NCBI GenBank assembly: GCA_019237315.1
Contig: JAFAHG010000192.1
Span: forward strand, 1-40,400
DNA from: Actinomycetota bacterium
Lineage (GTDB): Bacteria; Actinomycetota; Thermoleophilia; Gaiellales; Gaiellaceae
Direction: 5' to 3'
DNA length: 40,400 nucleotides
Positions 1 to 35,901 of the stretch are shown here, piece after piece. Below the pieces are notes generated by a model, which worked only from the letters and a program-made list of their open reading frames with translations, had not been told where the DNA came from and ran no database searches. The number at the start of each line of letters is the position of its first letter. Position 1 is the stretch's first letter. Made by a program: the position numbers and the translations under genes.

Positions 1-332
1 ACCGTCGCGTCGTTCGCGACGACGACGCACTCGCGGCCTTCGACGACGCCGATGCCGGTGACGATCCCGGCCGACGGCGCCTGGCCGTCGTAGAGCTCCC
101 ATGCCGCGAGCGCGCCGAGCTCGAGGAACGCCGTCCCCGGGTCGACGAGCCGGTCGATCCGCTCGCGCGCAAGGAGCTTCCCGCGCTCGCGGTGGCGCTC
201 GATCGCCCGGTCGCCGCCGCCGCGTGCGACCTGCGCGGTGCGCTCGCGCAGCTCGGCGACGAGCGACGCCATCCGCTCCTGTCGCCGTGTGAACTCGCTG
301 CCGTGCTCGACGGCCGTCTCGAGAAGCGCCAC
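1..332 (-). CDS. acyl-CoA carboxylase carboxyltransferase (beta) subunit, MccB/PccB-like; N-terminal part only, gene runs off the window start
   Basis: Hand translation of the reverse strand from GTG 332 (alternative ATG 272) gives [111 protein letters not shown]. This is the typical N-terminus of biotin-dependent carboxyltransferases. The ORF is not in the track because it is open-ended. Confidence 0.7.
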
Positions 333-402
333 CCCGGAACGTATAACCGGATTCCAACCCCTGCGGCCCGGGAATCCGACGGCGCGGCGGTTGACTTGCG
401 GC

Positions 403-804
403 GTGGGGGATACCGGCCCGATCCGCGTCCTCGTCTGCGATGACTCGCCGACGTTCGCGGCAGGCTTGCGCCGCCTCCTCGAGCACGAGCCCGAGATCGA
501 GGTCGTCGGCGTCCGCGGCTCGGCCGAGGAGGCGATCGCCGCGGTTCCCGAGCTCGCTCCCGACCTCGTGACGATGGACGTGGAGCTACCCGGGATGAAC
601 GGGCTCGACGCCGTCCAGCGGATCATGCGGGAGCACCCGGTGCCGATCCTCGTCCTCTCCTCGCGGACGACGGTGGCCGAGGCGGCGCTTGCCGCCGGCG
701 CGGTCGCCGCGCTCGCGAAGGACGAGGTCGCGCTGCGAGAGCCGGACGGAGACGCCGCGACGGCCCTCCGGCGCCGGCTCCGCACCCTCGCCGGCCGGGC
801 CTGA
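403..804 (+). CDS. stand-alone response-regulator receiver domain, CheB-N-terminal-like, with no methylesterase domain
   Basis: In frame with track ORF 238..804. [81 protein letters not shown] matches the CheB receiver pattern (DD pair, phospho-Asp in TMDVELP). The protein ends about 50 aa later. Start is GTG 403 (alternative TTG 391); the upstream ORF portion is Arg/Ser-rich junk. Confidence 0.75.
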
Positions 805-841
805 CGGCAGGAGAGGCGTAGGCTCCCGCGAAGGATTCGCA

Positions 842-2290
842 ATGCTCGGCCACGATCCCGGCCTTCGCCGGGGCGTTCACGCCCGCGGCCCCGCACGCAG
901 GATTCTGATCGCCACGGCGGTCGTCGTCCCGCTCATCGCCATCGCCTTCGGCGTCTCCATCTGGCGTGACTACAACGCGGCCGCCAAGCGCGACCAGTCG
1001 ACTCGCTCCGCCAACCAGCAGCTGACCGCACAGGTCGCCGTCAACGCCTTCCTGCGCGAGCGCGAGGCGATGGACGAGTACATGCTCACCGCGAACATCG
1101 CGTCGCTGACGACGATCGGCAACTCGAGCGTCGAGTTCAACACGGCGATGCAGTCGCTCAAGCCGTCCGCGCCCGGCGAGGCCGCACTCATCCAGCGCGC
1201 CCAGGCCGCGAACGACGCGTTCGTCGCCGACTTCCGGCGTCACGAGGGAGCCGCCCGCACGAACGTCGTCGCCGAGGAGTCGGCGATCGCCGAGCTGAAC
1301 ACGCACGAGCCGAGCGTCGTCGGCTCCCTCGCGTCGCTCCAGCAGATCTACGGAGACGAGGCGACGAACCGTAGCTCTGCCGCCGCGAGCGCGCGAACCG
1401 AGTCGAGGATCGCGAGCCTCGTTGCCGCGATCGTCTCCATCGTGGCCGCGATCGGCTTCGCCGTCTACGCGCTCACGCTCGTCGCGCGGGTCGGCTCGCG
1501 CGAAGCAAGCCTCGCGGAGCTCGTGCACCGGGTGCACGACACGTCGGGGATTCTCGCGCTCGTCGCCAACGAGCTGCGCGCGGCCGTCAAGCAGTCCGCA
1601 ACCGCGACGACGCAGCAGTCGACGGCGGTCGCCGAGACGTCCGCGACGATCGAGCGGCTCGCGGCCGCCGCGACAGCGATCGCGGACAACGCGCACGCAG
1701 TTTCGGCAGCGGCCGAGCAGACCGGTGCGACGATGCGGCACATGCAGGAGCAGGTCGAGACGATCGCAGCGCGGTCGGCCTCGCTCGGCGAGCGCTCGCA
1801 GAGGATCGGCGAGATCCTGGCGCTGATCAACGAGCTCGCCGAGCAGACGAACCTCCTTGCGCTGAACGCCGCGATCGAGGCGGCGCGCGCCGGAGAGGCG
1901 GGCAAGGGGTTCGCGGTCGTCGCCTCCGAGGTGCGCAAGCTCGCCGAGCGCTCGATCCGCTCGACAGACTCGATCCGCGACATCATCGCCGACGTCCAGC
2001 AGGAGACGAGCGCGACGATCACCGCGACCGAGGCGGGCTCGCGGCAGGCACGCGAGGTCGGACAGCTGATGACCGAGACGACGAGGATGCTCGAGGAGTC
2101 GATCCGCGCCACGCAGCAGCAGAAGGCGGCCGCCGACCAGGTCGCCGCCGCGATGGTGCAGATCCGCGAGTCGGCGCTCGCGCTCGTCGCCGAGGCCGAG
2201 CAGCGCGCGAACACCGCCGCGCGGGTCGAGGAGCTCGCCGCCGAGCTCGAGCGGACGCTCGCCGGCGGCAACGGAGCGGGGCCGCGTTGA
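842..2290 (+). CDS. methyl-accepting chemotaxis protein (two TM helices, about 155-aa extracytoplasmic helical sensor, short signalling domain)
   Basis: Internal ATG 842 of ORF 689..2290 is preceded by GAAGGA. TM helices are [21 protein letters not shown] and [26 protein letters not shown]. The highly conserved hairpin tip [44 protein letters not shown] is present. Confidence 0.9.
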
Positions 2291-2631
2291 GCACCGTGGT
2301 GAGCATCCGCGTGGGCGGCGAGCGCTACGCAGTCCCCGTGGAGAACGTCCGTGAGATCGCCGACTTCGGTCTCGTCGCGGCGTTGCCCGGTGCCGGACCG
2401 GCGGTGCTCGGCGTCCGCAACCTGCGCGGGCAGGTGCTCCCGGTGTTCGACCTCGCGGCGGTGCTGGGCGTCGAGCGGGCGGACGGTCCGCTGCGGATCC
2501 TCGTCGCCGAGGACGGCGGCCGGCGCGCGGGGCTCGCGGTCGACGACGTGACGGATGTCGGTGAGGAGTCCGACGGCGCCACGCGTCTCGCGGCGGCGGA
2601 TCTCTTCGCTGCGCTGGCGCGGACGGCATGA
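2287..2631 (+). CDS. cheW: CheW-like coupling protein
   Basis: 114 aa. [11 protein letters not shown]...[21 protein letters not shown]...LAVDDVTDV matches the CheW fold pattern. The TTG start overlaps the MCP stop (TTGA). Confidence 0.85.
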
Positions 2632-4073
2632 CCGACGCCGAGTTCTTCGAGCTCTTCCGCGACGAGGCGAACGGCCGCCTCGACAACATGGTCGGCTCGC
2701 TGCTCGCGCTCGAGTCGGGCCGCGCGGCGCCGGACGCGGTCGACGCGCTCTTCCGCGACGCCCACTCGATCAAGGGCGGGGCGAGCATGCTCGGCCTCGA
2801 CGACCTGCACGCGCTCGCACACGCGATCGAGGACATCCTGGAAGGCGTGCGCGAGGAGCGCGAGCTGCCGGTCGACCTGACCGACACGCTGCTTCGGGCG
2901 GTCGACGCGATGCGCCGCCAGCTCGCGGGCGAGGAGCAGGGCGCGCCCGAGCTCCTCGACGAGCTCGCACGCCGCAGGGCCGGAATCGACGCGCCGGCTG
3001 CCGCCCCGGAGCCCATCCGGCGCACGATTCGCGTGGCGGCCGAGAAGATCGACCTGCTGCTCGACCTCGTCGGCGAGTCGATCCTGCACCGCCGCCGCCT
3101 CGAGCACGTGCTGGGCGACGAGCGCGTTCGCGAGGACCCGGACGTCGTCGACGAGCTCGACCGCGGCGAGCGGCTGCTCGACGAGCTGAAGGACGCCGCG
3201 ATCTCGATGCGCACGCTTCCGCTCGCGTCGATCACCGGCCCGTTCCCTCGCGCGGTGCGCGACATCGCGCGTGCCCAGGGGAAGGAGGCCGAGCTCAGCA
3301 TCGTCGGCGCAGACACCGAGCTCGACCGCGTCATCCTCGAGAGCCTGTCCGAGCCGCTCGCGCATCTCCTGCGCAACGCCGTCGCCCACGGCATCGAGCC
3401 GTCGGCGCAGCGGATGCGCGCCGGAAAGCACCCGACGGGTCTCGTCGAGCTGCGTGCGCTCCAGCGCGGCAGCGTCGTCGAGATCGTGGTCGCGGACGAC
3501 GGCCGCGGCGTCCCGCCCGAGACGCTCGCGCGTGCGGAGCGCGAGGGGTCGTTGACGGAGGTGCTGACGGCGCCGGGGTTCTCGACCGCGACGACGGTGA
3601 CCGAGCTCTCCGGCCGGGGCGTCGGCCTCGACGTCGTCAAGCGCCACGTCGAGTCGTTCACCGGCTCGCTGGAGGTGCGCAGCGAGGTGGGGAAGGGCAC
3701 GAGCATCGTCATGCTGCTGCCGCTTGCGCTCGCGCTGCTCGAGGTGCTGCTCGTCGAGCGCGGCCGGAACGTGTTCGGGATTCCGCTCGGCAACGTCGAG
3801 CAGGCGCTCGCCGTCCACGGGGTGCTACCCGCGCTGCCGCTCGCGGAGCTCGGCGACACGCCGCCGTCGCCGTCGCGTGCGGTGGTGGTTGCCGCCGCGG
3901 GGCGGAAGGCCGGATTCCTCTGCGACCGTCTGCTCGGCCAGGACGAGGTCGTCGTCAAGCCGCTCGGCCCGCTGCTCGCACGCGTCCGCGGCTACCTCGG
4001 CGCTGCGATCCTCGGCGACGGCCGCGTCGCGCTCCTTCTCGACCCCGCCGCGCTCGTCGCTCGTGCAGTCTGA
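2628..4073 (+). CDS. cheA: chemotaxis-type histidine kinase CheA (P1-P3-P4-P5, no recognisable P2)
   Basis: Hpt site is FRDAHSIKGGASMLG. Dimerisation region is RVAAEKIDLLLDLVGE. N box is HLLRNAVAHGIE, G1 is DDGRGV and G2 is GRGVGLDVV. A C-terminal CheW-like domain is present. ATGA overlap with cheW. Confidence 0.9.
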   Translation: MTDAEFFELFRDEANGRLDNMVGSLLALESGRAAPDAVDALFRDAHSIKGGASMLGLDDLHALAHAIEDILEGVREERELPVDLTDTLLRAVDAMRRQLAGEEQGAPELLDELARRRAGIDAPAAAPEPIRRTIRVAAEKIDLLLDLVGESILHRRRLEHVLGDERVREDPDVVDELDRGERLLDELKDAAISMRTLPLASITGPFPRAVRDIARAQGKEAELSIVGADTELDRVILESLSEPLAHLLRNAVAHGIEPSAQRMRAGKHPTGLVELRALQRGSVVEIVVADDGRGVPPETLARAEREGSLTEVLTAPGFSTATTVTELSGRGVGLDVVKRHVESFTGSLEVRSEVGKGTSIVMLLPLALALLEVLLVERGRNVFGIPLGNVEQALAVHGVLPALPLAELGDTPPSPSRAVVVAAAGRKAGFLCDRLLGQDEVVVKPLGPLLARVRGYLGAAILGDGRVALLLDPAALVARAV

Positions 4074-4077
4074 CGCC

Positions 4078-4767
4078 GTGGCAAGCGAACGGATCCTCGT
4101 CGTCGACGACAGCGACACCGAGCGCGCGATCGTGACCAGCCGGCTCGAGCAGCACGGCTACGCGGTCTCGACGGCCGACGACGGCACCGAGGGACTGCGG
4201 AAGCTCTACGGGCTGAAGCCCGACCTCGTCCTCCTCGACGTCGTCATGCCCGGGCTGACCGGCTGGCAGGTGCTCGAGCGGATCCGCGAGGTCTCCGACG
4301 TGCCCGTGATCATGCTCACGTCGCGCGACAGCGAGGTCGAGCGCGTCCGTGGGCTGCGCGGCGGCGCCGACGACTACGTGGCGAAGCCCTTCTCGTCCGC
4401 CGAGCTGCTCGCGCGCGTGGAAGCCGTGCTCCGCCGCACGAGCGCCGCGCCCGCTGTGCGCGACGTGTACGAGGACGCAGAGGTGTCCATCGACTTCGGG
4501 GCGAGCGAGGTGCGGGTCCGCGGCGAGCTCGTCCCGCTGACGCCGCTCGAGTTCCGCCTGCTCGGCACGCTCACCGCGCACCCGGGGCAGGTGCTCTCAC
4601 GCGAGCAGCTGCTCGAGCACGTCTGGGGCGACGCGTATGCCCGCGGCGGCGACGAGGTGAAGCTGTACGTCCGCTACCTGCGTCTGAAGGTGGAGCGCGA
4701 CCCGCAGAACCCGACGCTGATCGAGACCGTGCGCGGCTTCGGGTACCGCTACCGGCCGCCGCGTTAG
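4078..4767 (+). CDS. OmpR/PhoB-family response regulator (receiver + winged-helix DNA-binding domain)
   Basis: GTG 4078 lies 4 nt after the cheA stop. Receiver: ILVVDDSDTERAI...LVLLDVVMPGLTGW...ADDYVAKPF. Winged helix: LTPLEFRLLGTLTAHPGQVLSREQLLEHVWG...ETVRGFGYRY. Confidence 0.9.
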   Translation: MASERILVVDDSDTERAIVTSRLEQHGYAVSTADDGTEGLRKLYGLKPDLVLLDVVMPGLTGWQVLERIREVSDVPVIMLTSRDSEVERVRGLRGGADDYVAKPFSSAELLARVEAVLRRTSAAPAVRDVYEDAEVSIDFGASEVRVRGELVPLTPLEFRLLGTLTAHPGQVLSREQLLEHVWGDAYARGGDEVKLYVRYLRLKVERDPQNPTLIETVRGFGYRYRPPR

Positions 4768-4772
4768 CGGCC

Positions 4773-4789
4773 GTCCGCCGCAGGCGGAC
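4773..4789. terminator. short GC hairpin in convergent intergenic spacer
   Basis: GTCCGCC-gca-GGCGGAC: 7-bp stem with a 3-nt loop, immediately after the TAG stop at 4765-4767. Confidence 0.35.
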
Positions 4790-4802
4790 CGGTGGAAGGG
4801 GT

Positions 4803-4828
4803 CTGGGGAAACCGGGAGGTTTCCCCAG
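4803..4828. terminator. bidirectional hairpin terminator between convergent genes
   Basis: CTGGGGAAACC-ggga-GGTTTCCCCAG: perfect 11-bp stem with a 4-nt loop. It lies between the + gene end (4767) and the - gene end (4834). There is no U-tract, which is common in high-GC actinobacteria. Confidence 0.55.
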
Positions 4829-4833
4829 CTGAT

Positions 4834-5682
4834 CTAGGTCGCAGGATTGAGCACGAGCGCTGCGCCGCCGGTCTGCAGCGCCGTCAGCTGGTAGCTGAAG
4901 ATGCTCGAGAGCGTCAGCGAGTCGATCGTGTTCGCCTCGACGTCGTCCGGCTGCGTCGGGAGCGGCGGTGCGGCGAGCCGCAGCGTCGACTTCAGCGGAT
5001 GCGAGAGCTCGTCCTTGTAGTTCTTCTTCTGCAGGAAGAGGAGCGAGCTCGACGTCGATCCCGGCGCGGGCGGCATGAACGCGATCACCGAGTCGACCGA
5101 CGGGATGAACTTGAACGTGTAGAGCGCCACCTCGAGCGCCTCGCGGCGAACGAGCCGGCCGCGCTCGGACGACGGCGTGCCGCTCGCGATCGAGCAGTGG
5201 TCGCCGAGGCCGCAGAAGGTGTACATCTCGCTCTTGTTCGAGTTGAGGATCTCGTAGTTCGGCGTCTTGCGGATTGCGATCGCCTTGATCGAGATGTTCG
5301 TCGTCCCGCTCGTCACCGTCGGCTTGCTGGGGACGACCGCGACGAGCTGCGCGCCGCTCGAGTTCAGCTTGTACTCGTGCGACACGTGGTTCGCGATCTC
5401 GCTGGCCATCGTCGAGAGGCTGCCGACCGCCGGCTTCCAGGCCGACCATGGCGCCGGCGACCGGTGGCCCGGCTTCACGACGAGGATGACGAATGCACCG
5501 ACCGCCGCGAGCAGGATCCCGGCGAGGGCGCCGTAGACGATCGTGAACCGGGTGGTGTAGCGCGGCTGGTCGCCGAAGCCCATCTGCGGGACGAGCGGCA
5601 GCGGCCCCGTCGCAGGCTCGCCGATGGGGGCGGCGGAGTCGCCGGGCTCGCCGGCGGGGAACTCCGGAGGCGTCTCGCTCAT
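4834..5682 (-). CDS. hypothetical single-pass membrane protein with about 200-aa extracytoplasmic domain (no family recognised)
   Basis: This is the C-terminal in-frame part of track ORF 4834..8409, starting at ATG 5682 (MSETPPEF...). TM helix is FTIVYGALAGILLAAVGAFVILVV. Amino-acid composition is ordinary, unlike the Arg/Pro junk upstream in the same frame. ATGA overlap with the stop of the upstream FtsH-like gene. Confidence 0.7.
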   Translation of the reverse strand: MSETPPEFPAGEPGDSAAPIGEPATGPLPLVPQMGFGDQPRYTTRFTIVYGALAGILLAAVGAFVILVVKPGHRSPAPWSAWKPAVGSLSTMASEIANHVSHEYKLNSSGAQLVAVVPSKPTVTSGTTNISIKAIAIRKTPNYEILNSNKSEMYTFCGLGDHCSIASGTPSSERGRLVRREALEVALYTFKFIPSVDSVIAFMPPAPGSTSSSLLFLQKKNYKDELSHPLKSTLRLAAPPLPTQPDDVEANTIDSLTLSSIFSYQLTALQTGGAALVLNPAT

Positions 5683-8333
5683 GCCGGGCGTCCGCCGCGC
5701 GGGCCGTCGTCGTCGAGCTTCGACCAGTTCATGAGCCTCGGCCACGAGCTCTCGTCCGTCCAGTCGATCTGCGGCTTCGTGAAGTGCTGCCGGTCGAGCA
5801 GGTTGACGAGGTCGTCGCCGTAGATCTCCTTCTTCTCCATGACGGTGTCGGCGATGTTCTCGACCTGCCGCTTGTTCTGCTCGATCAGGTTGTAGGCCGT
5901 CACGAACGCCTGGCCGATGAACTGTGCGGCGTAGGCGCGCTTCCGCGGGTCGCTGAGGACGGAGCCGGTCGGGTCGCCGGTGGCCTGCGTCGCCGTGCGG
6001 TTGAGCAGGCGCATGCCGATGTCCTCGAAGCGCCGCTGCACGCGCTCGCGCGTCTGCTGCTCGCTCTCGTCGGCGAAGGTCTTGCCGTGCAGGTCGAGCG
6101 GGAGGGGGGACATGCCCGCCGCGCCGACCATCATCGCCGCCGTCCACGTGACCGACTGGAGGTCGCCGCCGACGCCGACCGAGTTCTCGCCGTAGAAGGC
6201 GAATTCCGCCGCCATCGCGCCGATCGTGTGCACGAGCGCGCCGAACATGCGGCTCTGGAACGCGCCGAAGCGCTCTTCCTTCTCGAAGGCCTGGTGGTGG
6301 CCGAGCGAGCCCGCGCGCATGCGGATCGAGAGGCGGCTCGACTCGAGGTCGGGACGGAAGACGTGCGCCGCAGCCGCGTGGCCCGCCTCGTGGATCGCGA
6401 CAGCGCGCGCATCCTCCTGCGTGTACTTGACGTTCACCGCGGCGCCGGACTCGATCACCGTCATCGCGTCGAGGAGGTGGCCCCATGTGAACGCGAGCTT
6501 CCCCTCGTGGTGGGCGTTCGTGAGCGCCATCGAGCAGATCTGGTCGATCATCGCCGGCGAGTACCCGTTCGTGATGCGCGCAATCTCGTCGCGGCGCTCC
6601 GGGCGGTCGAGCTCCGGGTCGTGCGCGACCTTGCCGAGGTACAGGTCGAAGATGTCCTTGCGGTCTTCCTTCGTCGGCGTGCGGAACGCGACGTGGCGGC
6701 CCATGCGGCCGGGGCGCAGGAGCGCCGGGTCGAGCTGCTCGAGCGGCACGTTCGTCGCGCCGATGAAGTAGATCTGCGCGCCGAGCGGCCGCGGCGCCGG
6801 CAGGCGGAGCGATGCAGTGCCGTTCCTCGTGACACCGCGCCAGACGCTGACGCCGACGAGGGCGAGCAGCAGGCCGGCCGCGGAGATGAAGATCGCGCCG
6901 AGCGTCGAGATGTGGAACGGCTGCGCGATGCCCTCGACGAAGAAGCACGCGCCGATCGCCATGACGGCGACGGCGAAGATCCGGCCCGACGTCTTGTTGA
7001 GGCGCCGCGGGACGACGAAGACCGCGTCGAGGAACGAGTTGATCCGGTTCGTGTACATGCGGCGGAAGAACGGCGGGTTGTCGATGCCGTCCATCGTCAC
7101 GAGCAGCTGGTTCAGCGCGAGCTGGCCGCCCATGCCGCCGAACATGCCGGGGAACGCGCCCTGATTCACGATCTCTGCGACGCGCGTCAGCCAGTGCGGG
7201 TACGGCGAGCGCGGCTCCGGCGCGCGCTGCGCGAACATGAACTCGCGCCACGCGGGGCTCTCGATGACGAGGTCGCCGCTCGGGTTGATCGCACCGAACG
7301 GCCCGAAGAACTCGGGCGTCCAGCCGTAGCTCGCGGTCATGCTCTGCGTGACGCCGCGGCGGCGCATGCCGACCGCGTCGATCTCGTCGATGAAGACGAT
7401 GCACTGGCCGCCCCACTTGCGCGCGAGCCGCTTCGCCTTGCGGGCGAGGTAGCGCACGACGATCGCGTCGATGCCGATGAACGTCGCGGCGAAGCCGGAG
7501 CCCGGGATCGAGACGAACGGCGAGTTGAACCCGGTGGCGATCGCCTTTGCGAGCATCGTCTTGCCGACGCCCGGCGCGCCGTGGAAGAGGAGACCTCGTT
7601 CGCGTTTGCCGCCCGCCTTCTCGAAGACTTCGCCCGACTGCCAGAGCGTGACGACGCGGCGCACCTCCTCCTTCGCCTCCGCCTGGCCGCGGACGTCGTC
7701 GAGGCGGACGCCCCACTCGGCGTCGCCGGGCTCGTAGCCGCGGATCTGCGAGATGTTCATGAGGAGCAGCGGCCCCATGAAGATGAAGAAGTTCGCGAAG
7801 AAGAGGAAGAACACGACCACGATCTGCATCCAGAACGCCTGGCTCTGTGCGAGCCGGCCGAGCGTGTGGAAGATGTGGCCGATCGTCCCGAAGTAGCTCA
7901 CGCTCTGGCCCGGCGAGGCCTTGGCAAGCTTGATCAGGAAGATGACGGTGAGGAGTCCGAAGATCCACGCGGCCTTGCGGACGACGCCGTTCCACGTCCA
8001 CGCGCGGCGGCGGTTCACGACGTCGTTCTCGCGGACGCGCGCGTCGTCGGTGCCGAAGAGCGACGGCCACGGGATCAGCCGGCGGACGATCACGTCGACG
8101 ACGCCGCGGAAGGCGACGATGGTGAAGAACGTGGCGACGAGCGACCAGAAGACGCCCCAGCCGTTGTGGTGGTGGTACCAGTAGAAGACCGACGGGCTCG
8201 TCAGGACCGCGATCAGGGTCGCGACGCGCGTGAGGCGGCGCCACTCCCGTGACAGCGCGCTCTGCGACTCGCTCACGAGCGACGGCTGTGGATTCGGGTT
8301 CGGCAGAGGTTCTGCGGCCGCCAAAGTTTTCAT
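5679..8333 (-). CDS. FtsH-like membrane AAA+ ATPase / M41 zinc metalloprotease with atypical insertions
   Basis: 884 aa with four N-terminal hydrophobic helices. Walker A is GAPGVGKT, pore loop is ATFIGID and Walker B is IVFIDEIDAV. Sensor and Arg finger: IYFIGATNVPLEQLDPALLRPGRMGR. M41 motif is HEAGHAAAAH, followed by EFAFYGENSVGVGGDLQSVT. Large insertions lie between Walker B and sensor-1. Confidence 0.85.
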   Translation of the reverse strand: MKTLAAAEPLPNPNPQPSLVSESQSALSREWRRLTRVATLIAVLTSPSVFYWYHHHNGWGVFWSLVATFFTIVAFRGVVDVIVRRLIPWPSLFGTDDARVRENDVVNRRRAWTWNGVVRKAAWIFGLLTVIFLIKLAKASPGQSVSYFGTIGHIFHTLGRLAQSQAFWMQIVVVFFLFFANFFIFMGPLLLMNISQIRGYEPGDAEWGVRLDDVRGQAEAKEEVRRVVTLWQSGEVFEKAGGKRERGLLFHGAPGVGKTMLAKAIATGFNSPFVSIPGSGFAATFIGIDAIVVRYLARKAKRLARKWGGQCIVFIDEIDAVGMRRRGVTQSMTASYGWTPEFFGPFGAINPSGDLVIESPAWREFMFAQRAPEPRSPYPHWLTRVAEIVNQGAFPGMFGGMGGQLALNQLLVTMDGIDNPPFFRRMYTNRINSFLDAVFVVPRRLNKTSGRIFAVAVMAIGACFFVEGIAQPFHISTLGAIFISAAGLLLALVGVSVWRGVTRNGTASLRLPAPRPLGAQIYFIGATNVPLEQLDPALLRPGRMGRHVAFRTPTKEDRKDIFDLYLGKVAHDPELDRPERRDEIARITNGYSPAMIDQICSMALTNAHHEGKLAFTWGHLLDAMTVIESGAAVNVKYTQEDARAVAIHEAGHAAAAHVFRPDLESSRLSIRMRAGSLGHHQAFEKEERFGAFQSRMFGALVHTIGAMAAEFAFYGENSVGVGGDLQSVTWTAAMMVGAAGMSPLPLDLHGKTFADESEQQTRERVQRRFEDIGMRLLNRTATQATGDPTGSVLSDPRKRAYAAQFIGQAFVTAYNLIEQNKRQVENIADTVMEKKEIYGDDLVNLLDRQHFTKPQIDWTDESSWPRLMNWSKLDDDGPRGGRPA

Positions 8334-14159: not shown

Positions 14160-14232
14160 CAGGGGCGGAGGGACTCGAACCCCCAACCCCCGGTTTTGGA
14201 GACCGGTGCTCTGCCAGTTGAGCTACGCCCCT
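14160..14232 (-). tRNA. tRNA-Trp (anticodon CCA)
   Basis: The reverse complement folds as a cloverleaf. Acceptor is AGGGGCG/CGCCCCT. D arm is GCTC-AACTGGCA-GAGC. Anticodon arm is CCGGT-CTCCAAA-ACCGG. T loop is TTCGAGT. Discriminator is G. No CCA is encoded. Confidence 0.9.
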
Positions 14233-14284: not shown

Positions 14285-14452
14285 ATGCTCGCGGCGCTCT
14301 TCACAGTGTTGACCCTCGGCCTCGTCGGCATCGCGGTCGCAGGGGCCCTCGCCGGGGGTGTCCGCGGGTGGGTGGTCGCCGTGGCGGCGGCGGCGATCGC
14401 GGGGTGGATGGCGACGGTGGCGGTCGCGGCCGTGAGGAGAAGGCGCCGCTAG
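14285..14452 (+). CDS. possible small two-TM membrane protein
   Basis: MLAALFTVLTLGLVGIAVAGALAGGVRGWVVAVAAAAIAGWMATVAVAAVRRRRR has high GC3. It ends 16 nt before the sigma-factor start. An alternative TTG start is at 14249. No homology recognised. Confidence 0.35.
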   Translation: MLAALFTVLTLGLVGIAVAGALAGGVRGWVVAVAAAAIAGWMATVAVAAVRRRRR

Positions 14453-14456
14453 CTCG

Positions 14457-14462
14457 TATTCT
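14457..14462 (+). promoter_or_regulatory. -10-like hexamer TATTCT, 6 nt upstream of GTG 14469 (leaderless-type arrangement)
   Basis: TANNNT hexamer in an AT-enriched patch. N6 spacing to the start codon, with no Shine-Dalgarno. Confidence 0.4.
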
Positions 14463-14468
14463 CTTTCC

Positions 14469-15242
14469 GTGGCCGGGGAGGCGGAGCTCCAGCGTCTGTG
14501 GCGCGAGTACAGGCGCACGAAGGACCAGGCAGTCCGTGACCGGCTGATCGTCACGTACGCGCCGCTCGTCAAGTACGTCGCGGGCCGGCTCGGCTCGGGT
14601 CTGCCCGCGCACGTCGACGAGGGCGACCTCGTCTCCTACGGCCTCCTCGGCCTGATCGGCGCGATCGAGCGGTACGAGCCCGACCGCGACATCAAGTTCG
14701 AGACCTACGCGATGGCGCGGATCAAGGGGGCGATCATCGACGAGCTGCGCGCGCTCGACTGGGTGCCGCGGTCGGTGCGGTCGCGCGCGCGTGAGATCGA
14801 GCGTGCGATCGCCGAGCTCGAGGCGAAGGTCGGACGTGCGCCGACCGACGAGGAGATCGCGGCCAAGGTCGGCATCTCCGTCGAGGAGCTCGAGGACTCG
14901 CTGACCGACATCTCCCGGTCGTCGATCGCGGCCCTCGACGAGCTCTGGTCCGCGAGCGGCGAAGGCGACCAGATCTCGCTGCTCGACACGATCGAGGACA
15001 CGAGCGGCCCGCGCCCGGCGGACGCCCTCGACGAGACCGAGACGAAGGAGCTCGTCGCCGACGCGATCTCGCGACTGCCGGAACGGGAGAAGCTCGTGGT
15101 CACCCTCTACTACTACGAGGAGCTGACGCTGCGCGAGATCGGCGAGGTGCTCGGCGTGACCGAGTCGCGCGTCTCGCAACTGCATACGAAGGCGGTGCTC
15201 CGCCTGAAGTCGCGCCTGTCCGGCGCCGCCGCGCGCTCTTAA
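14469..15242 (+). CDS. FliA/WhiG-family (sigma-28 group) RNA polymerase sigma factor
   Basis: Region 2: LVKYVAGRL...EGDLVSYGLLGLIGAIERYEPDRDIKFETYAMARIKGAIIDELR. Region 3: EIAAKVGISVEELE. Region 4.2: LTLREIGEVLGVTESRVSQLHTKAVLRLK. Confidence 0.85.
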   Translation: MAGEAELQRLWREYRRTKDQAVRDRLIVTYAPLVKYVAGRLGSGLPAHVDEGDLVSYGLLGLIGAIERYEPDRDIKFETYAMARIKGAIIDELRALDWVPRSVRSRAREIERAIAELEAKVGRAPTDEEIAAKVGISVEELEDSLTDISRSSIAALDELWSASGEGDQISLLDTIEDTSGPRPADALDETETKELVADAISRLPEREKLVVTLYYYEELTLREIGEVLGVTESRVSQLHTKAVLRLKSRLSGAAARS

Positions 15243-15326: not shown

Positions 15327-15400
15327 GGTTGTCACGAAACTGCAACGGGCCGGTTTAGGATGGCCGGGGTCACATCGTCTCGTCCGAGGAGGTCCGCCGC

Positions 15401-17443
15401 ATGTCGCAGGAGCCCGGGAAGATCCGCAACGTCGCCGTCGTCGGCCACCGCGGGACGGGCAAGACCGCGCTCGTCGAGGCGATGCTCTTCCAGTCCGGGG
15501 CGATCAACCGGCTCGGCACCGTCGAGGCGGGCACCACGACGGGCGACTGGGACGAGGACGAGCACCGGCGTCAGATGTCGCTCGCCGCGTCGCTCTGCCA
15601 CGCCGAGTGGCAGGGCCGGAAGATCAACCTCCTCGACACGCCGGGCGACAGCGGCTTCCAGGCGGACACGATCGCGTCGCTCCACGTCGTCGAGGGTGCG
15701 CTCGTCGTCGTCTCCGGCGTGATGGGCGTCGAGGTGAACACGTCGCGCGTCTGGCAGCGCGCCGAGAAGCTCGGGCTCTCGCGAGTCGTGTTCGTGAACA
15801 TGCTCGACCGCGAGCGCGCTGACTTCCACCGCGTGCTCGGCGCGCTGCAGGAGCAGCTGTCGAGTCGCTGCGTCGCGATCCAGCTGCCGATCGGCGCCGA
15901 GCACGAGCTCACGGGAATCGTCGACCTGCTCCACAACTGCGCGTACATGGAACCCGCGGGCGCACGCGAAGGCGACCCCGTCCCGATCCCCGCGGAGATG
16001 CAGGCGACCGCCGCGGAGTACCGCGAGAAGCTCCTCGACGCCGTCGTCGAGACCGACGAGGCGCTGATGGAGCGCTACCTCGCGGGCGAGGAGCTCGACC
16101 CGCACGACGTCGCCGCGGCGCTCAAGACCGCCGTCACGAACGACGAGCTCTACCCGGTCTCCTGCGGCGTCGCGACGAAGAACCTCGGGACGCACTCGCT
16201 GCTCGACCTGCTCGTCGAAGGCGTGCCGTCGCCCGCGCGCAAGCCCTCGCCGTTCGCGGGCGAGGGTATCGAGGCGTTCGTGTTCAAGACCGTCGCCGAC
16301 CCGTTCGCAGGCCGCATCTCCTGCTTCCGTGTCTTCTCGGGGACGGTGACGCCGGACTCGAACCTCGTGAACGCGCGCGACCACTCGAAGGAGCGCGTCG
16401 GCGCGCTGATGATGCTCCAGGGGAAGGAGCACGAGAAGTCGGACGGCTTCGGCCCGGGGGACATCGGCGCCGTCGCGAAGCTCAAGGACGTGCAGACCGG
16501 CGACGTGCTCGTCGACGCCGAACGCAACCTCGACGTCCCGCACCTCGACTTCCCCGAGCCGGTGATGAGCTTCGCCGTCACGCCGAAGACGAAGGGCGAC
16601 GAGGACAAAGTCGCGCAGGCGCTCCGCCGTCTCCACGAGGAGGACCCGACGCTGCAGCTCCACCGCGACGCGCAGACCGGCGAGCAGCTGCTCTCCGGGA
16701 TGAGCCAGGTTCACGTCGAGGTCGCCGTCGCGCGGCTGAAGAGCCGCTTCGGCGTCGACGTCGAGCTGCACCAGCCGCGCGTGCCGTACGTGGAGACGAT
16801 CAAGTCCGGCGCGCGCGCGCAGGGGCGGTACAAGAAGCAGACGGGCGGCCGCGGCCAGTTCGGCGACTGCATCATCGAGATCGAGCCGCTCGACGGCCAC
16901 GTCGGTTACGAGTTCGTCGACAAGATCGTCGGCGGCGTCATCCCGCAGGGCTTCCGGCCGGCCGTCGACAAGGGGATCCAGGAGGCGATGGCCCGCGGCG
17001 ACCTCGCGGGCGCGCCGGTGCAGGGCGTGCGCGTGCACCTGGTCGACGGCTCGTACCACACGGTGGACTCGTCCGAGATGGCGTTCAAGGTCGCCGGCTC
17101 GATGGCGTTCAAGTCCGCGTACGAGAAGGCGCAGCCCGTCCTCCTCGAGCCGATCATGCAGCTCGACGTGACCGTGCCCGACGACGCCGTCGGCGGCGTG
17201 AACGGCGACCTCAACTCGCGGCGCGGCCGCCTGCTCGGCATGGAGCCGGCCGGCGGCATGACGACGATCCGCGCCGAGGTGCCGATGGCCGAGGTGCTGA
17301 CCTACTCGCAGTCGCTGACGTCGCTCACTGGCGGAAGGGGCGACTACCACATGTCGTTCCTGCGCTACGAAGAGGTTCCGGCGCACATCGCACAGAAGCT
17401 GATCGACGCCGCGAAGAAGGAAAAAGAGGCCGTCCCGGCCTGA
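15401..17443 (+). CDS. elongation factor G paralogue (EF-G2/FusA2-like)
   Basis: GAGGAGG Shine-Dalgarno. G1 is VGHRGTGKT and G3 is DTPGDSGF, followed by NMLD. Full EF-G domain order through the C-terminal LEPIMQLDVTVPDD...GDLNSRRGRLLGME...AEVPMAEVLTYSQSLTSLTGGRG. Confidence 0.85.
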   Translation: MSQEPGKIRNVAVVGHRGTGKTALVEAMLFQSGAINRLGTVEAGTTTGDWDEDEHRRQMSLAASLCHAEWQGRKINLLDTPGDSGFQADTIASLHVVEGALVVVSGVMGVEVNTSRVWQRAEKLGLSRVVFVNMLDRERADFHRVLGALQEQLSSRCVAIQLPIGAEHELTGIVDLLHNCAYMEPAGAREGDPVPIPAEMQATAAEYREKLLDAVVETDEALMERYLAGEELDPHDVAAALKTAVTNDELYPVSCGVATKNLGTHSLLDLLVEGVPSPARKPSPFAGEGIEAFVFKTVADPFAGRISCFRVFSGTVTPDSNLVNARDHSKERVGALMMLQGKEHEKSDGFGPGDIGAVAKLKDVQTGDVLVDAERNLDVPHLDFPEPVMSFAVTPKTKGDEDKVAQALRRLHEEDPTLQLHRDAQTGEQLLSGMSQVHVEVAVARLKSRFGVDVELHQPRVPYVETIKSGARAQGRYKKQTGGRGQFGDCIIEIEPLDGHVGYEFVDKIVGGVIPQGFRPAVDKGIQEAMARGDLAGAPVQGVRVHLVDGSYHTVDSSEMAFKVAGSMAFKSAYEKAQPVLLEPIMQLDVTVPDDAVGGVNGDLNSRRGRLLGMEPAGGMTTIRAEVPMAEVLTYSQSLTSLTGGRGDYHMSFLRYEEVPAHIAQKLIDAAKKEKEAVPA

Positions 17444-22488: not shown

Positions 22489-22562
22489 GCGGGCGTAGCT
22501 CAGTTGGCTAGAGCGTCTCCTTGCCATGGAGAAGGTCGAGAGTTCGAGTCTCTTCGCCCGCT
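22489..22562 (+). tRNA. tRNA-Gly (anticodon GCC)
   Basis: Cloverleaf: GCGGGCG-TA-GCTC-AGTTGGCTA-GAGC-G-TCTCC-TTGCCAT-GGAGA-AGGTC-GAGAG-TTCGAGT-CTCTT-CGCCCGC-T. Confidence 0.9.
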
Positions 22563-26549: not shown

Positions 26550-26620
26550 GGCGCCTTGGCCGAGTGGTTAGGCAGCGGCCTGCAAAGCCGTTTACAGCGG
26601 TTCGAATCCGCTAGGCGCCT
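26550..26620 (+). tRNA. tRNA-Cys (anticodon GCA)
   Basis: Acceptor is GGCGCCT. Anticodon arm is GCGGC-CTGCAAA-GCCGT. T arm is AGCGG-TTCGAAT-CCGCT. The U discriminator is characteristic of tRNA-Cys. Confidence 0.9.
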
Positions 26621-26691
26621 CTCTTCCTCCGCGCTACCCTTGAGTCGCGGCGTACGCCGCGTTCGTTTTCCGAGGATGAGGGGGGTCACTG

Positions 26692-29575: not shown

Positions 29576-30418
29576 TCACCCGGCGCTCAGCGCGGCCACC
29601 CCGGCGAGCGCGACGCCCACGCCGCCGAGCTGCGTCGCCGTCAGCCGCTCGCCGAGCACGAGGTGCGCGAGGAGGACGGTCACCACCGGGTACAGCGACC
29701 CGAGCACGGCCACGAGCGCGAGGAGACCATGCCCGCTCGCGAGCGCGAAGAGCGCGTTCGCGGCTGCGTCGCACAGGCCGATCGCCGCGACGGCCGGCAG
29801 CGAGCTGCGTGCCACGACGAGCGGCGCACCCCGCGCGAACGCGAGCGCGAAGAGCAGCGTGAGCGACCCCACGCGCGCGCCGACGAGCGTCGAGAGAGGG
29901 CTCCCTTCCCGACTGCCGAGGCCGAGAAAGTACGTGAACGCGCCGAGCGCGCCCGCCGCGACGAGGGCGAGCACGACCGCCCGCGCGCGCTCGCGCGTCC
30001 CGGCGCGGCGCTCTTCCGCGGACGCGAGCACGGCACCCGCGAGCGCCGCCGCGGCGCCGCCGAGCGCGAGCCCCGAGGGCCGCTCACCGGTTGCGAGCGA
30101 CACGACGAACGGCACGAGCGCGCCGCAGGCCGCGAGCGGCGAGACGATGCTCATCGTCCCGAGCGAGAGCGCCTTGTAGAACGCCGCGAGACCCGCGCCT
30201 CCTCCGACACCCGCCAGCAGTCCGATCCAGAACGACCGCCCGTCGAGCGGGAATCCGCGCACCGCGAGCACGACAAGCAGCGCGACGAACCCCGCCGACT
30301 GCGAGACGACCGTCACCGCGAGGGTCGGCAAGCGCCGGGACACGAGCCCGCCGCTGAAGTCGGCGACGCCCCATAGCGTCGACGACCCGAGCGCGAGGAG
30401 GATCCCGAGGCCGCTCAC
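29576..30418 (-). CDS. EamA/DMT-superfamily transporter
   Basis: Ten hydrophobic helices in two EamA-like halves. [12 protein letters not shown] lies near the N-terminus. Start is GTG. Confidence 0.8.
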
Positions 30419-30428
30419 GGGCCGTGGA

Positions 30429-30434
30429 TACCAT
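30429..30434 (+). promoter_or_regulatory. -10-like hexamer TACCAT, 7 nt upstream of ATG 30442
   Basis: TANNNT-N7-ATG. Confidence 0.35.
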
Positions 30435-30441
30435 TTCGCGC

Positions 30442-30990
30442 ATGAAGCCGCTTCGTATCGGCGTCCTTGCCGTGCAGGGGAACTTTCGCGAGCACGCCGC
30501 GATGCTGCGTCGTCTCGGCGCGGAGGCGGTCGAGGTGCGCAAGCCGGAGGAGCTCGATGGCCTCGACGGCCTCGTCATCCCGGGCGGCGAGTCGACGACG
30601 TTCATGCGCCTGATGCGCCTCTACGGCCTCGACGAGGCGATCCGCGCCTTCGAGGGCCCGGTATTCGGCACGTGCGCGGGGATGATCGTCCTCGACCGCG
30701 ACCACCTCGGCCTCGTCGACATCGACGTCCGCCGCAACGCGTTCGGGCGGCAGGTCGCCTCGTTCGAGACGGACATCGAGGTCGAGGGCAGTTCCGTCCG
30801 CGCCGTCTTCATCCGCGCGCCGTGGATCGAGGACGTCGGCCCCGACGTCGAGGTTCTCGCCGAGGTCGAGGGCCATCCCGTGCTCGCGCGCCAGGGACGC
30901 TTTCTCGTCGCGTCCTTCCATCCGGAGCTGACCGACAACACGCGGCTGCACGAGCTCTTTCTCGAGGAGGTGGGCCTTGTCAGGGCATAG
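30442..30990 (+). CDS. pdxT: pyridoxal 5'-phosphate synthase glutaminase subunit PdxT
   Basis: [23 protein letters not shown], the catalytic Cys in GTCAGMI, and FHPE. Start is the internal ATG of ORF 30424..30990. Confidence 0.9.
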
Positions 30991-31732
30991 CAAGTGGTCC
31001 TCGATCAAGCACAAGAAGGGCGCGGCCGACGCGAAGCGCGGCAAGCTGTTCTCGAAGCTCTCCCGCGCGATCATCGTCGCGGCGAAGGAGGGCGGCGGCG
31101 ATCCGGCCGGCAACCTTGCGCTGCAGAACGCGATCGAGAAAGCGCGCTCGTACTCGATGCCGAAGGACAACATCGACCGCGCGATCGCGAAGGGCACCGG
31201 CGAGGGCGCCGACGCGGCCGCCTTCGAGACGGTGGTCTACGAGGGGTACGGCCCGGAAGGCGTCGCCGTGATCGTCGAGGCGCTCACCGACAACAGAAAC
31301 CGCACCGCCTCCGACGTGCGCCACGCCTTCGCCAAGCACGGCGGCTCGCTCGGCGCCACCGGGGCCGTCGCGTGGCAGTTCGATCGTCGCGGCGTCGTGG
31401 TCGTCGGTGCGAACGGCGTCGACGAGGACGAGCTCTTCCTCGCCGCGGCAGACGGCGGTGCCGACGACATCGAGCGCGACGGCGACGTCTTCGAGGTGAC
31501 GAGCGCGCCGGAGAACCTCGCCGCGGTGCGCAATGCGATCGAGGGCGCCGGCTTCACGGTCGACTCCGCCGAGCTGTCGCTGATCCCGAAGAACACGGTC
31601 TCCGTCGAGGACGAGAGCGCCGCGAAGCGCGTCATGCGCCTGATCGAGGACCTCGAGGACAACGACGACGTCCAGGACGTCTACGCGAACTTCGACATCC
31701 CCGAGCAGGTGCTCGAGGCCGTCGCGGGCTAG
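30977..31732 (+). CDS. yebC: YebC/PmpR-family transcriptional regulator
   Basis: TTG start giving [43 protein letters not shown]... Canonical YebC N-terminus. Confidence 0.9.
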
Positions 31733-31785
31733 TAGCGGCCCGTCTGCCCGTTTCGGGGGCCGGAAGGAACGTCCGACCCCGTCCC

Positions 31786-31791
31786 TAACCT
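31786..31791 (+). promoter_or_regulatory. -10-like hexamer TAACCT, 6 nt upstream of GTG 31798
   Basis: TANNNT-N6-GTG. Confidence 0.4.
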
Positions 31792-31797
31792 CTCCAC

Positions 31798-33832: not shown

Positions 33833-33834
33833 CC

Positions 33835-33840
33835 CATACT
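33835..33840 (+). promoter_or_regulatory. -10-like hexamer CATACT, 6 nt upstream of ATG 33847
   Basis: xANNNT-N6-ATG. This is the weakest member of the set because the first base is C. Confidence 0.25.
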
Positions 33841-33846
33841 TAGACG

Positions 33847-35856: not shown

Positions 35857-35862
35857 CTCTGC

Positions 35863-35868
35863 AGGATA
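35863..35868 (-). promoter_or_regulatory. -10-like hexamer TATCCT (minus strand), 6 nt upstream of GTG 35856
   Basis: TANNNT-N6-GTG. Confidence 0.4.
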
Positions 35869-35895
35869 CCCGGGAGGGGTGGAGGTGCCACTCGT

Positions 35896-35901
35896 TACGG
35901 T
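35896..35901 (+). promoter_or_regulatory. -10-like hexamer TACGGT, 6 nt upstream of GTG 35908
   Basis: TANNNT-N6-GTG. Confidence 0.4.

Follow-up and report, generated by a model that had tools for sequence, protein, structure and literature searches.

The window is a 40.4-kb contig from a soil actinobacterium in the Gaiellaceae, and five co-directional genes lie on its plus strand between positions 403 and 4767. Using the sequence together with Pfam, we found that they encode, in order, a receiver (REC), a receptor (MCP), the coupling protein CheW, the histidine kinase CheA and an OmpR-family regulator. The REC stop at 804 and the MCP ATG at 842 are 37 nt apart, with the ribosome-binding site GAAGGA in between; the MCP stop and CheW start share TTGA (2287-2290), and the CheW stop and CheA start share ATGA (2628-2631). 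The CheA stop (4073) and the OmpR GTG (4078) are separated by 4 nt, or overlap by 11 nt if translation starts at GTG 4063, as annotated by one source. All five reading frames are intact and their catalytic residues are conserved. Pfam and the reading of the junctions thus confirmed the packed five-gene arrangement that the sequence-only reading had described. That reading also held that the operon lacks cheY, cheR and cheB, which agrees with our results: directly upstream, a gene encoding a carboxyl transferase N-terminus starts at 272 and is divergent, so no upstream gene belongs to the same operon. The absence of adaptation enzymes and CheY applies to the 40.4-kb contig; the rest of the genome may carry cheR, cheB and cheY.

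The first gene (403..804, plus strand) encodes a protein of 133 aa that matched only Response_reg in Pfam; the receiver is intact, with the acidic pocket D13 and D14, the phospho-acceptor D59, S86 and K106. Its top NCBIfam matches were two CheB models (E 2.4e-30, profile positions 3-131 of 357), with the next family at 8.9e-17, and no methylesterase domain was found by Pfam before the protein ends. The earlier assignment to a CheB N-terminal receiver without methylesterase is therefore upheld by both databases. The receiver of full-length CheB1, encoded at the same operon position in L006, L015 and L017, shares 66% identity with it, and the same 133-aa protein is present in NCBI, JGI and ENA assemblies. 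Judged from these comparisons, gene 1 is a former CheB receiver whose methylesterase was deleted.

The MCP (482 aa, 842..2290, plus strand; Pfam MCPsignal) has, by hydropathy, TM1 at about aa 21-41, an extracytoplasmic region of about 148 aa and TM2 at about aa 190-215. The extracytoplasmic region is predicted to be all-helical, as it is in a low-confidence AF2 single-sequence model. No HAMP match was detected in the MCP even at E<=10, and TM2 continues straight into a segment (residues 229-473) that can be aligned gap-free to E. coli Tsr 268-512, whereas the 44-heptad T. maritima receptor can be aligned only with indels. The signalling domain is thus of Tsr length, with 36 heptads and the hairpin tip at E352, and the proposed lack of HAMP between TM2 and this domain held up. 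At the residues matching Tsr 297, 304 and 311, relatives bearing both CheR and CheB have E-E-E, the window has Q-E-R and L001 has E-A-Q; these changes at Tsr-equivalent methylation sites would be consistent with loss of adaptation.

CheW (114 aa, 2287..2631, plus strand) matched Pfam CheW at profile positions 2-91 of 138. In the alignment it is about 20 residues short in the C-terminal beta-strand region, which relatives and the E. coli and T. maritima CheW keep, and the same 114-aa form occurs in the independent MAG contigs L023 and L024. CheA (481 aa, 2628..4073, plus strand) has a P1-P3-P4-P5 layout, with Pfam domains Hpt at aa 5-97, H-kinase_dim at 132-194, HATPase_c at 243-367 and CheW at 409-479. 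The P1 histidine H46 lies in HSIKGG, and the N, G1 and G2 boxes of P4 are intact. Hpt and the dimerisation domain are only about 35 residues apart, and Pfam gave no match to a P2/CheY-binding domain in CheA, as had been noted from the sequence alone. The missing P2 is ordinary, because fewer than half of 13,673 CheAs have this domain (PMC10782961). CheA also has no C-terminal receiver, while 117 of the 119 CheA relatives listed are about 650 aa long and carry one (Response_reg); its P5 has internal deletions of about 20 aa in total, and its P1-P3 linker is shorter than in fuller relatives. This 481-aa allele was found in four assemblies. The CheW and P5 deletions affect what characterised homologues fold as beta-strands, and could weaken coupling.

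The last gene (4078..4767, plus strand) encodes an OmpR/PhoB-family response regulator of 229 aa (Pfam Response_reg and Trans_reg_C), with receiver residues D10, D11, the phospho-acceptor D54, T81 and K103 followed by a winged-helix DNA-binding domain; NCBIfam returned generic OmpR-family models only, all under their cut-offs. In all the OmpR-bearing relatives that we examined, orthologues with 64-82% identity form the last, 3' gene of the Che operon; this covers six of seven architectures and at least three downstream genomic contexts. Ten CheA and OmpR homologues in the two match lists come from contigs of equal length. The OmpR start often overlaps the preceding stop or lies a few nucleotides from it (4-8 nt overlaps in L015 and L017), while the genes 3' of OmpR vary by context, being an FtsH-like protease, YchF, aconitase or a PAS kinase. 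In the window and in 13 relative loci with OmpR, no HisKA kinase adjoins the orthologue; a PAS-HisKA kinase does occur downstream in L021, where its partners are a receiver of its own and a second OmpR paralogue. For one clade of related Che clusters (L002, L004 and L005), the 10 kb downstream contain no OmpR gene. This comparative genomics strengthens the proposal that the OmpR-family regulator is the probable output of the Che module.

Upstream of the operon we found a conserved element, ACCGGATTCCAACC (346..359, plus strand), 44 nt before the first start codon, which reads as a direct repeat, (A/T)ACC...AACC, with 11 bp spacing. An exact match to ACCNNNNTCYAACC occurs in the window only at this site, and L001, L006, L014, L015, L017 and L024 each have a single copy of the pattern, 44-46 nt 5' of the first Che gene in all six loci despite differing upstream flanking genes. 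It was not found upstream of the L019/L020 or L002/L005 operons. The element may serve as an operator for a regulator or belong to an ECF-like promoter.

Comparison with relatives showed the window locus to be the most reduced version of a chemosensory operon found in Gaiellaceae. The order REC-MCP-W-A-OmpR is shared by the window and L023; L001 and L014 have REC-MCP-W-A~REC-OmpR, L015 has CheB1-MCP-W-A~REC-CheR-REC-OmpR, and L003, L006 and L017 add CheB2 to the L015 type. The fuller relatives encode CheB1 at full length, CheB2, a CheA that ends in a receiver, CheR-TPR and a CheY-like receiver. Some add a partner-switching module and glycosyltransferases, the order in L021 and L022 being A~REC-CheB-CheR-GAF/SpoIIE-REC-GAF/HD-STAS-RsbW-like-GT-GT-unknown-OmpR; L019 and L020 have MCP-W-A-OmpR. 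The window operon marks the last stage in the stepwise reduction of a larger cluster with CheB, CheR-TPR, a CheY-like receiver and hybrid CheA-REC. The sequence-only view of a Che module with an OmpR-family output therefore gains from the conserved 3' linkage across contexts and the lack of an adjoining histidine kinase, but the module is not a stand-alone novel wiring.

The reduced architecture recurs in at least three independent MAG assemblies. Pooled pN/pS was 0.083 against L024 (36 synonymous and 8 non-synonymous differences; p = 7e-14) and 0.15 against L023 (23 and 9; p = 3e-7). Against L023, OmpR has 6 synonymous and 0 non-synonymous differences, and MCP and CheW have 2 and 5, which counts against the pathway proposed below, though the numbers are tiny. 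The allele thus recurs in independent MAGs and, with pN/pS of 0.08-0.15, is under purifying selection, so that it is not decaying.

On balance, the five-gene operon is probably a reduced non-motility (ACF-like) chemosensory pathway with transcriptional output from CheA through OmpR and the CheB-derived receiver as second acceptor. The HAMP-less, 36-heptad transmembrane receptor would detect an extracytoplasmic signal through its all-helical sensor and govern the minimal four-domain CheA via the shortened CheW. CheA would autophosphorylate on H46 and, as we infer, pass the phosphoryl group directly to D54 of the co-transcribed OmpR-family regulator, changing transcription. The CheB-derived receiver was most likely kept as a second phospho-acceptor, which may act as a sink draining CheA~P or compete for it. 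Since the operon encodes neither methyltransferase nor methylesterase, signalling would probably proceed without methylation-based adaptation, a lack that may hold genome-wide.

CheA is not known to have a phosphatase activity of its own on OmpR-type regulators, so OmpR needs some means of being switched off. [quoted passage not shown] We consider such an arrangement unlikely, given that no HisKA kinase adjoins OmpR at any of the loci above, the L021 kinase having its own partners, and that H46 and the ATP-binding boxes of CheA are intact and under purifying selection. It is very improbable that the OmpR gene is an unrelated passenger sharing a transcript or neighbourhood with the Che genes: adjacency by itself is no proof of partnership and the L002, L004 and L005 clusters manage without OmpR, but the adjacency survives at least six gene-content rearrangements and several downstream context changes at near-zero intergenic distance, and OmpR is the sole remaining output-domain protein in the reduced forms.

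The locus could also be the core of a genuine motility chemotaxis system, with CheY and perhaps CheR and CheB elsewhere and OmpR merely a conserved neighbour. The WhiG/FliA-family sigma factor that had been noticed about 10 kb away is indeed there (14436-15242, above the NCBIfam WhiG equivalog cut-off), and in the basal actinobacterial classes, Thermoleophilia among them, 41%-91% of species have flagellar genes (PMC10746217). We nevertheless regard this as quite improbable: as first read, the whole 40.4-kb contig has no flagellar or pilus gene, nor do the called genes of any relative locus; flagellar systems of Thermoleophilia belong to class F1 and use 44-heptad receptors (PMC10746217), unlike the window receptor, which is of Tsr length; the hybrid CheA-REC, CheR-TPR and multidomain regulators of the relatives are features reported for non-motility clusters (PMC3447774); and the OmpR linkage persists through changes of genomic context. 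The losses relative to fuller clusters (CheB2, CheR, the CheY-like receiver, the CheB1 methylesterase and the CheA receiver), the roughly 20 aa missing from each of CheW and P5, the shortened P1-P3 linker and the substitutions at candidate methylation sites are what a stepwise-decaying, non-functional remnant would display. Set against five intact frames with conserved catalytic residues, an architecture repeated in independent MAG assemblies, pN/pS far under the neutral expectation, and clean, in-frame deletions that keep start/stop coupling, decay is the least credible explanation.

The favoured pathway, from CheA to OmpR, resembles M. xanthus Che3, in which MCP, CheW and CheA without CheY control gene expression via a cluster-encoded DNA-binding response regulator (PMC3147164). 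Their outputs differ, CrdA being NtrC-type (sigma-54) and the window regulator an OmpR winged helix; Che3 keeps CheB and CheR, whereas the window operon encodes neither CheR nor the CheB catalytic domain; and CrdA has the dedicated kinase CrdS, with CheA3 as phosphatase (PMC3147164), while the window locus has no such kinase. Pseudomonas Wsp and ACF clusters with CheR-TPR share hybrid CheA-REC, CheB, CheR-TPR and a multidomain response regulator output with the fuller relatives, but the Wsp output is a GGDEF cyclase, and CheR, the CheB catalytic domain and the CheA receiver are gone from the window. The window receptor has 36 heptads against the 40 cited for ACF (PMC10746217), a length that counts against the ACF reading. 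Receptors of 36 heptads and a proposed non-motility stress role characterise ancestral (stage 1-2) F7 systems of gamma-proteobacteria, such as V. cholerae cluster III and P. aeruginosa Che2, whose clusters hold anti-sigma-antagonist (STAS) and serine-phosphatase genes (PMC7184735), a pairing also seen in L021 and L022. F7 systems differ in their soluble PAS/poly-HAMP Aer2-like receptors and in clusters with CheY and CheD and without an OmpR-type regulator. Chemotaxis in Helicobacter pylori lacks CheR and CheB, and there too a receptor-CheW-CheA system operates without methylation enzymes. Its CheA likewise has no P2 (PMC10782961). The H. pylori system differs in its CheY-controlled flagella, its CheV proteins and its lack of a transcription-factor output.

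ACF-type clusters have hybrid CheA-REC, CheR-TPR and multidomain response regulators (PMC3447774; PMC10782961), and regulators joining REC to cd00383, the OmpR-type winged-helix effector domain, are listed among CheR-TPR cluster outputs (PMC3447774). The Gaiellaceae relatives match these features. This kind of system is thus already catalogued, Che clusters with winged-helix response regulators being known within the ACF class, and the window, as the most pared-down operon of its family, makes for a neat evolutionary series.

Five co-directional genes with tight junctions had been proposed from sequence inspection, and Pfam searches together with the sequence of the junctions confirmed them at 403-4767 on the forward strand. 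Pfam detected only Response_reg in gene 1 (403..804, +), MCPsignal in the receptor gene (MCP, 842..2290, +), CheW in the third gene (2287..2631, +), Hpt, H-kinase_dim, HATPase_c and CheW in the CheA gene (2628..4073, +), and Response_reg plus Trans_reg_C in the OmpR/PhoB regulator gene (4078..4767, +). The MCP and CheW genes meet in TTGA (2287-2290) and the CheW and CheA genes in ATGA (2628-2631), while CheA stops at 4073 and OmpR starts with GTG at 4078; additionally, the gene 1 stop (804) and the MCP ATG (842) lie 37 nt apart, with a GAAGGA ribosome-binding site in between. A frameshifted CheA-OmpR fusion was ruled out by the different frames, the clean stop and the same arrangement in L023, one of the relative loci (L001-L024) fetched around homologues of the window CheA or OmpR regulator. 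The catalytic residues are all there: CheA has H46 and the N, G1 and G2 boxes, and the gene 1 and OmpR receivers both have the acidic pocket, phospho-acceptor Asp, Ser/Thr and Lys. 5' of the operon, the translation from 272 downwards fits positions 2-67 of the Carboxyl_trans profile, and this divergent gene indicates that the operon begins at 403 with no cheY, cheR or cheB upstream in the same transcription unit; the sequence-only reading had named such genes as evidence against itself. A convergent membrane-protein gene (4834-5682) closes the operon 3', followed by an FtsH-like gene (5679-8333).

The MCP matched PF00015 (E 3.9e-33), and its hairpin tip motif aligned to that of Tsr from E. coli. 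Residues 229-473 aligned gap-free to Tsr 268-512 (245 residues) and residues 216-472 to E. coli Tar 253-509, whereas alignment to a 44-heptad T. maritima receptor required indels, indicating that the signalling domain, whose heptads the sequence-only reading had proposed to count, is of Tsr/Tar (36-heptad) length. The absence of HAMP held up as well, with no model match in the MCP even at E<=10; TM2 ends near residue 215 and the gap-free Tsr alignment starts at 229, so that TM2 is predicted to be joined almost directly to the signalling helix. The extracytoplasmic region of about 148 aa had no Pfam domain match, an AF2 single-sequence model of the N-terminus was all-helical at low confidence (pLDDT 69, pTM 0.28), and a search with the sensor region returned two homologues only, too few for an alignment.

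The operon carries neither CheR nor a CheB catalytic domain. We compared the MCP positions aligned to the Tsr methylation sites 297, 304, 311, 493 and 502, and found E, E, E, Q and E/D in the four relatives that have both CheR and CheB in their clusters. The equivalents are Q258, E265, R272, Q454 and E463 in the window and E, A, Q, H and E in L001 (the last being the E463 equivalent), and L019 retains E, E, E at the Tsr 297/304/311 equivalents. Changes in two CheR/CheB-less lineages of the clade, a small sample, fit relaxed constraint on methylation. Judged on the operon within the 40.4-kb contig, an absence of adaptation is plausible.

Gene 1 had been described as CheB-like but ending before any methylesterase domain, and this was correct: its best NCBIfam matches were two CheB models (E 2.4e-30, profile positions 3-131 of 357; next family 8.9e-17), and the 133-aa product lacks the CheB_methylest catalytic domain. 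In L006, L015 and L017 the orthologous proteins span 341-348 aa and contain PF01339. The receiver is 66% identical to that of CheB1, the full-length CheB that opens the operons of relatives at the same position; its identity to the receivers of downstream CheB proteins (the second CheB, CheB2, of L006 and L017; the reference CheB of L002) is 55-58%. The closer identity to CheB1 and the shared position indicate a CheB1 that lost its catalytic domain, and on profile and alignment evidence gene 1 is classed as a CheB-derived receiver, not a CheB. The window and L001/L014 lineages share 67% identity in this receiver and both keep its reading frame and active-site residues, so it appears to have a retained role.

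All four core domains of CheA (Hpt with its phospho-His, dimerisation, HATPase_c and CheW-like P5) scored above Pfam cut-offs, and these four are the stated functional minimum (PMC10782961). As first noticed by eye, no P2 is recognisable: no P2/CheY-binding model matched, and only about 35 residues separate Hpt (5-97) from the dimerisation domain (132-194). Its absence is nothing unusual: in a set of 13,673 CheAs, more than half had no detectable P2 (PMC10782961). A CheA search gave 119 relatives at 56-69% identity, the named ones from Gaiellaceae MAGs, and 117 of them are about 650 aa long and end in a Response_reg domain; of the two exceptions, one is cut by a contig end and one is apparently frameshifted. 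The window CheA stops exactly at the start of the relatives' linker to this receiver, and alignment to the relatives showed that its P5 is short by about 20 residues and its P1-P3 linker is also shorter. Among CheA pairs, window and L001 are closest (72%), and the most distant L019 (59%) is likewise receiver-less, indicating that the receiver was lost at least twice. The receiver-less CheA of the second minimal operon type is broken into two frames in both L019 (8410-9979) and L020 (2866-4678). The break falls at one shared place (about residue 270) in these two assemblies, which come from different samples, and reflects either systematic long-read error or a true frameshift of the lineage. 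CheW exceeded the PF01584 cut-off over only profile positions 2-91 of 138 and is short by about 20 residues; the missing stretch corresponds in the alignment to the C-terminal beta-strand region of CheW from E. coli and T. maritima. An AF2 single-sequence model of the window CheW was of low confidence and uninformative (pLDDT 45). L001 has smaller deletions at the same places in CheW and P5.

The relative loci form a graded series. The fullest, L021 and L022, have the order CheA~REC (CheA with a C-terminal receiver)-CheB-CheR(TPR)-GAF/SpoIIE-REC-GAF/HD-STAS-RsbW-like kinase-two DUF3492/GT4 glycosyltransferases-unknown-OmpR. L003, L006 and L017 have CheB1-MCP-CheW-CheA~REC-CheB2-CheR-REC-OmpR, and L015 has the same order without CheB2. 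L001 and L014 are reduced to REC-only-MCP-CheW-CheA~REC-OmpR, the window, L023 and L024 to REC-only-MCP-CheW-CheA-OmpR, and L019 and L020 to MCP-CheW-CheA (no REC)-OmpR. A further type, MCP-CheW-CheA~REC-CheB-CheR-REC in L002, L004 and L005, has no OmpR within 10 kb. CheR proteins with TPR matches occur in L002, L015, L017, L021 and L022. A contig search recovered only four Gaiellaceae loci, its other matches (28-36% identity) being no help for classification. In the sister clade of L021 (1-10687) and L022 (1-10690), the partner-switching and glycosyltransferase genes lie on the same strand as the Che genes with OmpR last, and the two glycosyltransferases are PelF-like. This layout hints that the family may regulate a partner-switching circuit and exopolysaccharide synthesis.

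Despite the lost genes and domains, the reduced module appears to be maintained. The 481-aa CheA, 114-aa CheW and 133-aa receiver recur in independent assemblies: GCA_019233255.1, GCA_019235235.1, one ENA assembly and one JGI assembly, and the 481-aa form in four assemblies ruled out the shortened CheA as an assembly artefact. Across the four genes shared with L024 we counted 36 synonymous and 8 non-synonymous differences (pN/pS 0.083; binomial p = 7e-14), and against L023 the counts were 23 and 9 (pN/pS 0.15; p = 3e-7). OmpR showed 6 synonymous and 0 non-synonymous differences and CheA 15/4 and 22/6 in the two comparisons; MCP and CheW against L023 alone gave 2 synonymous and 5 non-synonymous, counts too small to interpret. 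The low pN/pS values indicate that the reduced module is under purifying selection.

The OmpR regulator matched PF00072 (E 5.9e-29) and PF00486 (E 5.3e-24), with D10, D11, D54, T81 and K103 present, and reached no NCBIfam equivalog cut-off, which sets it apart from MtrA, PhoB and other named orthologues. Its orthologues (64-82% identity) form the last gene of the Che operon in all but one of the seven architectures, where they overlap the preceding gene by up to 8 nt or follow it by up to about 20 nt, and ten CheA and OmpR matches in the two hit lists lie on equal-sized contigs. The genes downstream of OmpR differ: the membrane protein and FtsH-like protease in the window, L001, L003, L006, L014, L015, L017 and L023, YchF in L019 and L020, aconitase in L022 and, in L021, a PAS kinase accompanied by regulators of its own. 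Because the synteny is kept across these changing contexts, the comparative evidence for functional coupling of the Che genes to OmpR is good, short of proof of phosphotransfer, and the two are probably coupled. The interpretation of a chemosensory module controlling an OmpR-type regulator was partly borne out, with the coupling to OmpR well supported by synteny.

In the proposed mechanism, the MCP would sense a signal through its extracytoplasmic region and, through CheW, control CheA autophosphorylation at H46; the phosphorylated P1 would donate to D54 of OmpR and thereby change transcription, with D59 of the CheB-derived receiver retained as a competing acceptor. The simplest role for this receiver, a phosphate sink, is plausible, since CheA has no phosphatase activity (established, restated in PMC3147164) and both the CheA receiver and the CheY-like protein of the relatives are gone in the window. 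The main rival is an arrangement like M. xanthus Che3-CrdA, the best-studied functional analogue, where a separate kinase is dedicated to the transcription factor CrdA and the role of CheA3 is that of a phosphatase (PMC3147164); by analogy, the window CheA might remove phosphate from an OmpR regulator served by another kinase. In the window, OmpR is flanked by CheA upstream and by the convergent membrane-protein gene and then the FtsH-like protease gene downstream, with no DHp/HisKA sensor kinase, and no HisKA kinase adjoined an OmpR orthologue at the window or the relative loci examined. In the reduced operons, the OmpR regulator is the sole output-domain protein. More speculatively, the Gaiellaceae loci might show a chemosensory machine being minimised step by step in nature. 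The end state, in the window, would be an adaptation-free receptor-CheW-CheA unit serving as a three-protein 'sensor kinase' of an OmpR-type factor; extended arrays would no longer be built, and the orphaned CheB receiver would have been recruited as a phosphate sink. The loss of extended arrays is suggested by the trimmed surfaces of CheW and P5, but we regard this joint reading as tentative and, taken whole, rather doubtful.

A conserved element, ACC-N4-TC(C/T)AACC, was found 44-46 nt 5' of the first operon gene in three diverged lineages with differing upstream genes. It lies at 341-384 in the window (core 346-359), at 7603-7616 in L001, 5559-5572 in L014, 3210-3223 in L015, 2264-2277 in L017, 6914-6927 in L006 and 46-59 in L024. 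The element comprises two (A/T)ACC/AACC half-sites at 11-bp spacing, with a second semi-conserved block (..ATTCCGACG) about 17 nt 3' of it, and could represent an operator for a response regulator or the -35/-10 pair of an ECF-like promoter. The operon leaders of L019/L020 and L002/L005 lack this element. That it tracks the presence of OmpR is unsupported, as the L019 and L020 operons bear OmpR; it tracks the clade whose operon opens with CheB1 or a CheB1 remnant. If this repeat were the regulator's operator, the circuit would also be autoregulated. An inverted repeat, CGGATTCC...GGAATCCG (window 348-355 and 374-381), overlaps the element in the window/L024 lineage only. Scanning 1-5700 for promoters and terminators gave a single chance-level terminator and nothing resembling a sigma-70 promoter. 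By eye, no stretch 5' of the operon convincingly matched a sigma-28/WhiG promoter (TAAA-N15-GCCGATAA), and the operon leader gave no match in Rfam and tRNA scans.

The sigma factor noted about 10 kb from the operon is indeed WhiG-type: the gene at 14436-15242 (+) scores 372.7 bits with the NCBIfam WhiG equivalog model, whose cut-off is 343. An EF-G gene follows it (15359-17443, +), and the same pair occurs in L015, about 9 kb from OmpR. The FtsH-like AAA+/M41 protease (884 aa, 5679-8333, -) has an insert of about 200 residues, including hydrophobic, membrane-like segments, between its Walker B region (FIDEIDAVG) and ATN motif (FIGATNVP), and its NCBIfam match is split (210-327 and 521-841) and below cut-off. 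Its gene is always paired with that of an uncharacterised membrane-anchored protein (window 4834-5682, -), and the pair adjoins the Che-OmpR operon in L001, L003, L006, L014, L015, L017 and L023. The window, with a G+C content of about 71%, is the entire 40,400-nt contig carrying the CheA. Its only three tRNA genes, Trp-CCA (14160-14232, -), Gly-GCC (22489-22562, +) and Cys-GCA (26550-26621, +), and a housekeeping run at 30358-40400 (PdxT, YebC, RuvC, RuvA, RecJ, RelA/SpoT) indicate an ordinary chromosome, not a mobile element.

[quoted passage not shown] The window has the ACF feature of a multidomain response-regulator output (PMC3447774) without motility linkage: a REC plus Trans_reg_C gene ends the operon, and flagellar and pilus genes are absent from all 40,400 nt, as first stated, and from the relative loci. 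Catalogued ACF-type outputs include REC fused to cd00383, an OmpR-type effector domain (PMC3447774). The hybrid CheA-REC and CheR-TPR that often accompany multidomain regulators in ACF-type clusters are absent from the window and present in the fuller Gaiellaceae relatives. ACF-cognate receptors are cited as 40 heptads long (PMC10746217), whereas the window receptor has, by alignment, the 36-heptad length associated with F7 (PMC10746217, PMC7184735). Together with the STAS and serine-phosphatase genes of L021/L022, this receptor recalls ancestral non-motility F7 systems (PMC7184735).

The system is a strongly reduced, new form of non-motility chemosensory pathway with a DNA-binding response-regulator output. 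It overturns no concept; winged-helix outputs in such clusters are already in genome surveys. Non-motility chemosensory pathways are common and few are understood (Wsp, Che3, Frz and R. centenum Che3); our literature search turned up no experimental characterisation of a Che pathway whose output is of the OmpR type, nor anything about Gaiellaceae chemosensory genes. The main value lies in the evolutionary series, from a thirteen-gene operon down to a five- or four-gene core that keeps receptor, CheW, CheA and OmpR. The series points to the parts that may be dispensable once the output is transcription and not a motor, namely the adaptation enzymes, the CheA receiver and the CheY-like protein. 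Two questions can also be put to such a compact system: why cells choose a receptor array over an ordinary sensor kinase, and what an orphaned CheB receiver does. Gaiellaceae recur in soil and rhizosphere microbiome studies in the literature searched and have very few cultured members, so that any defined signalling circuit in this family is useful.
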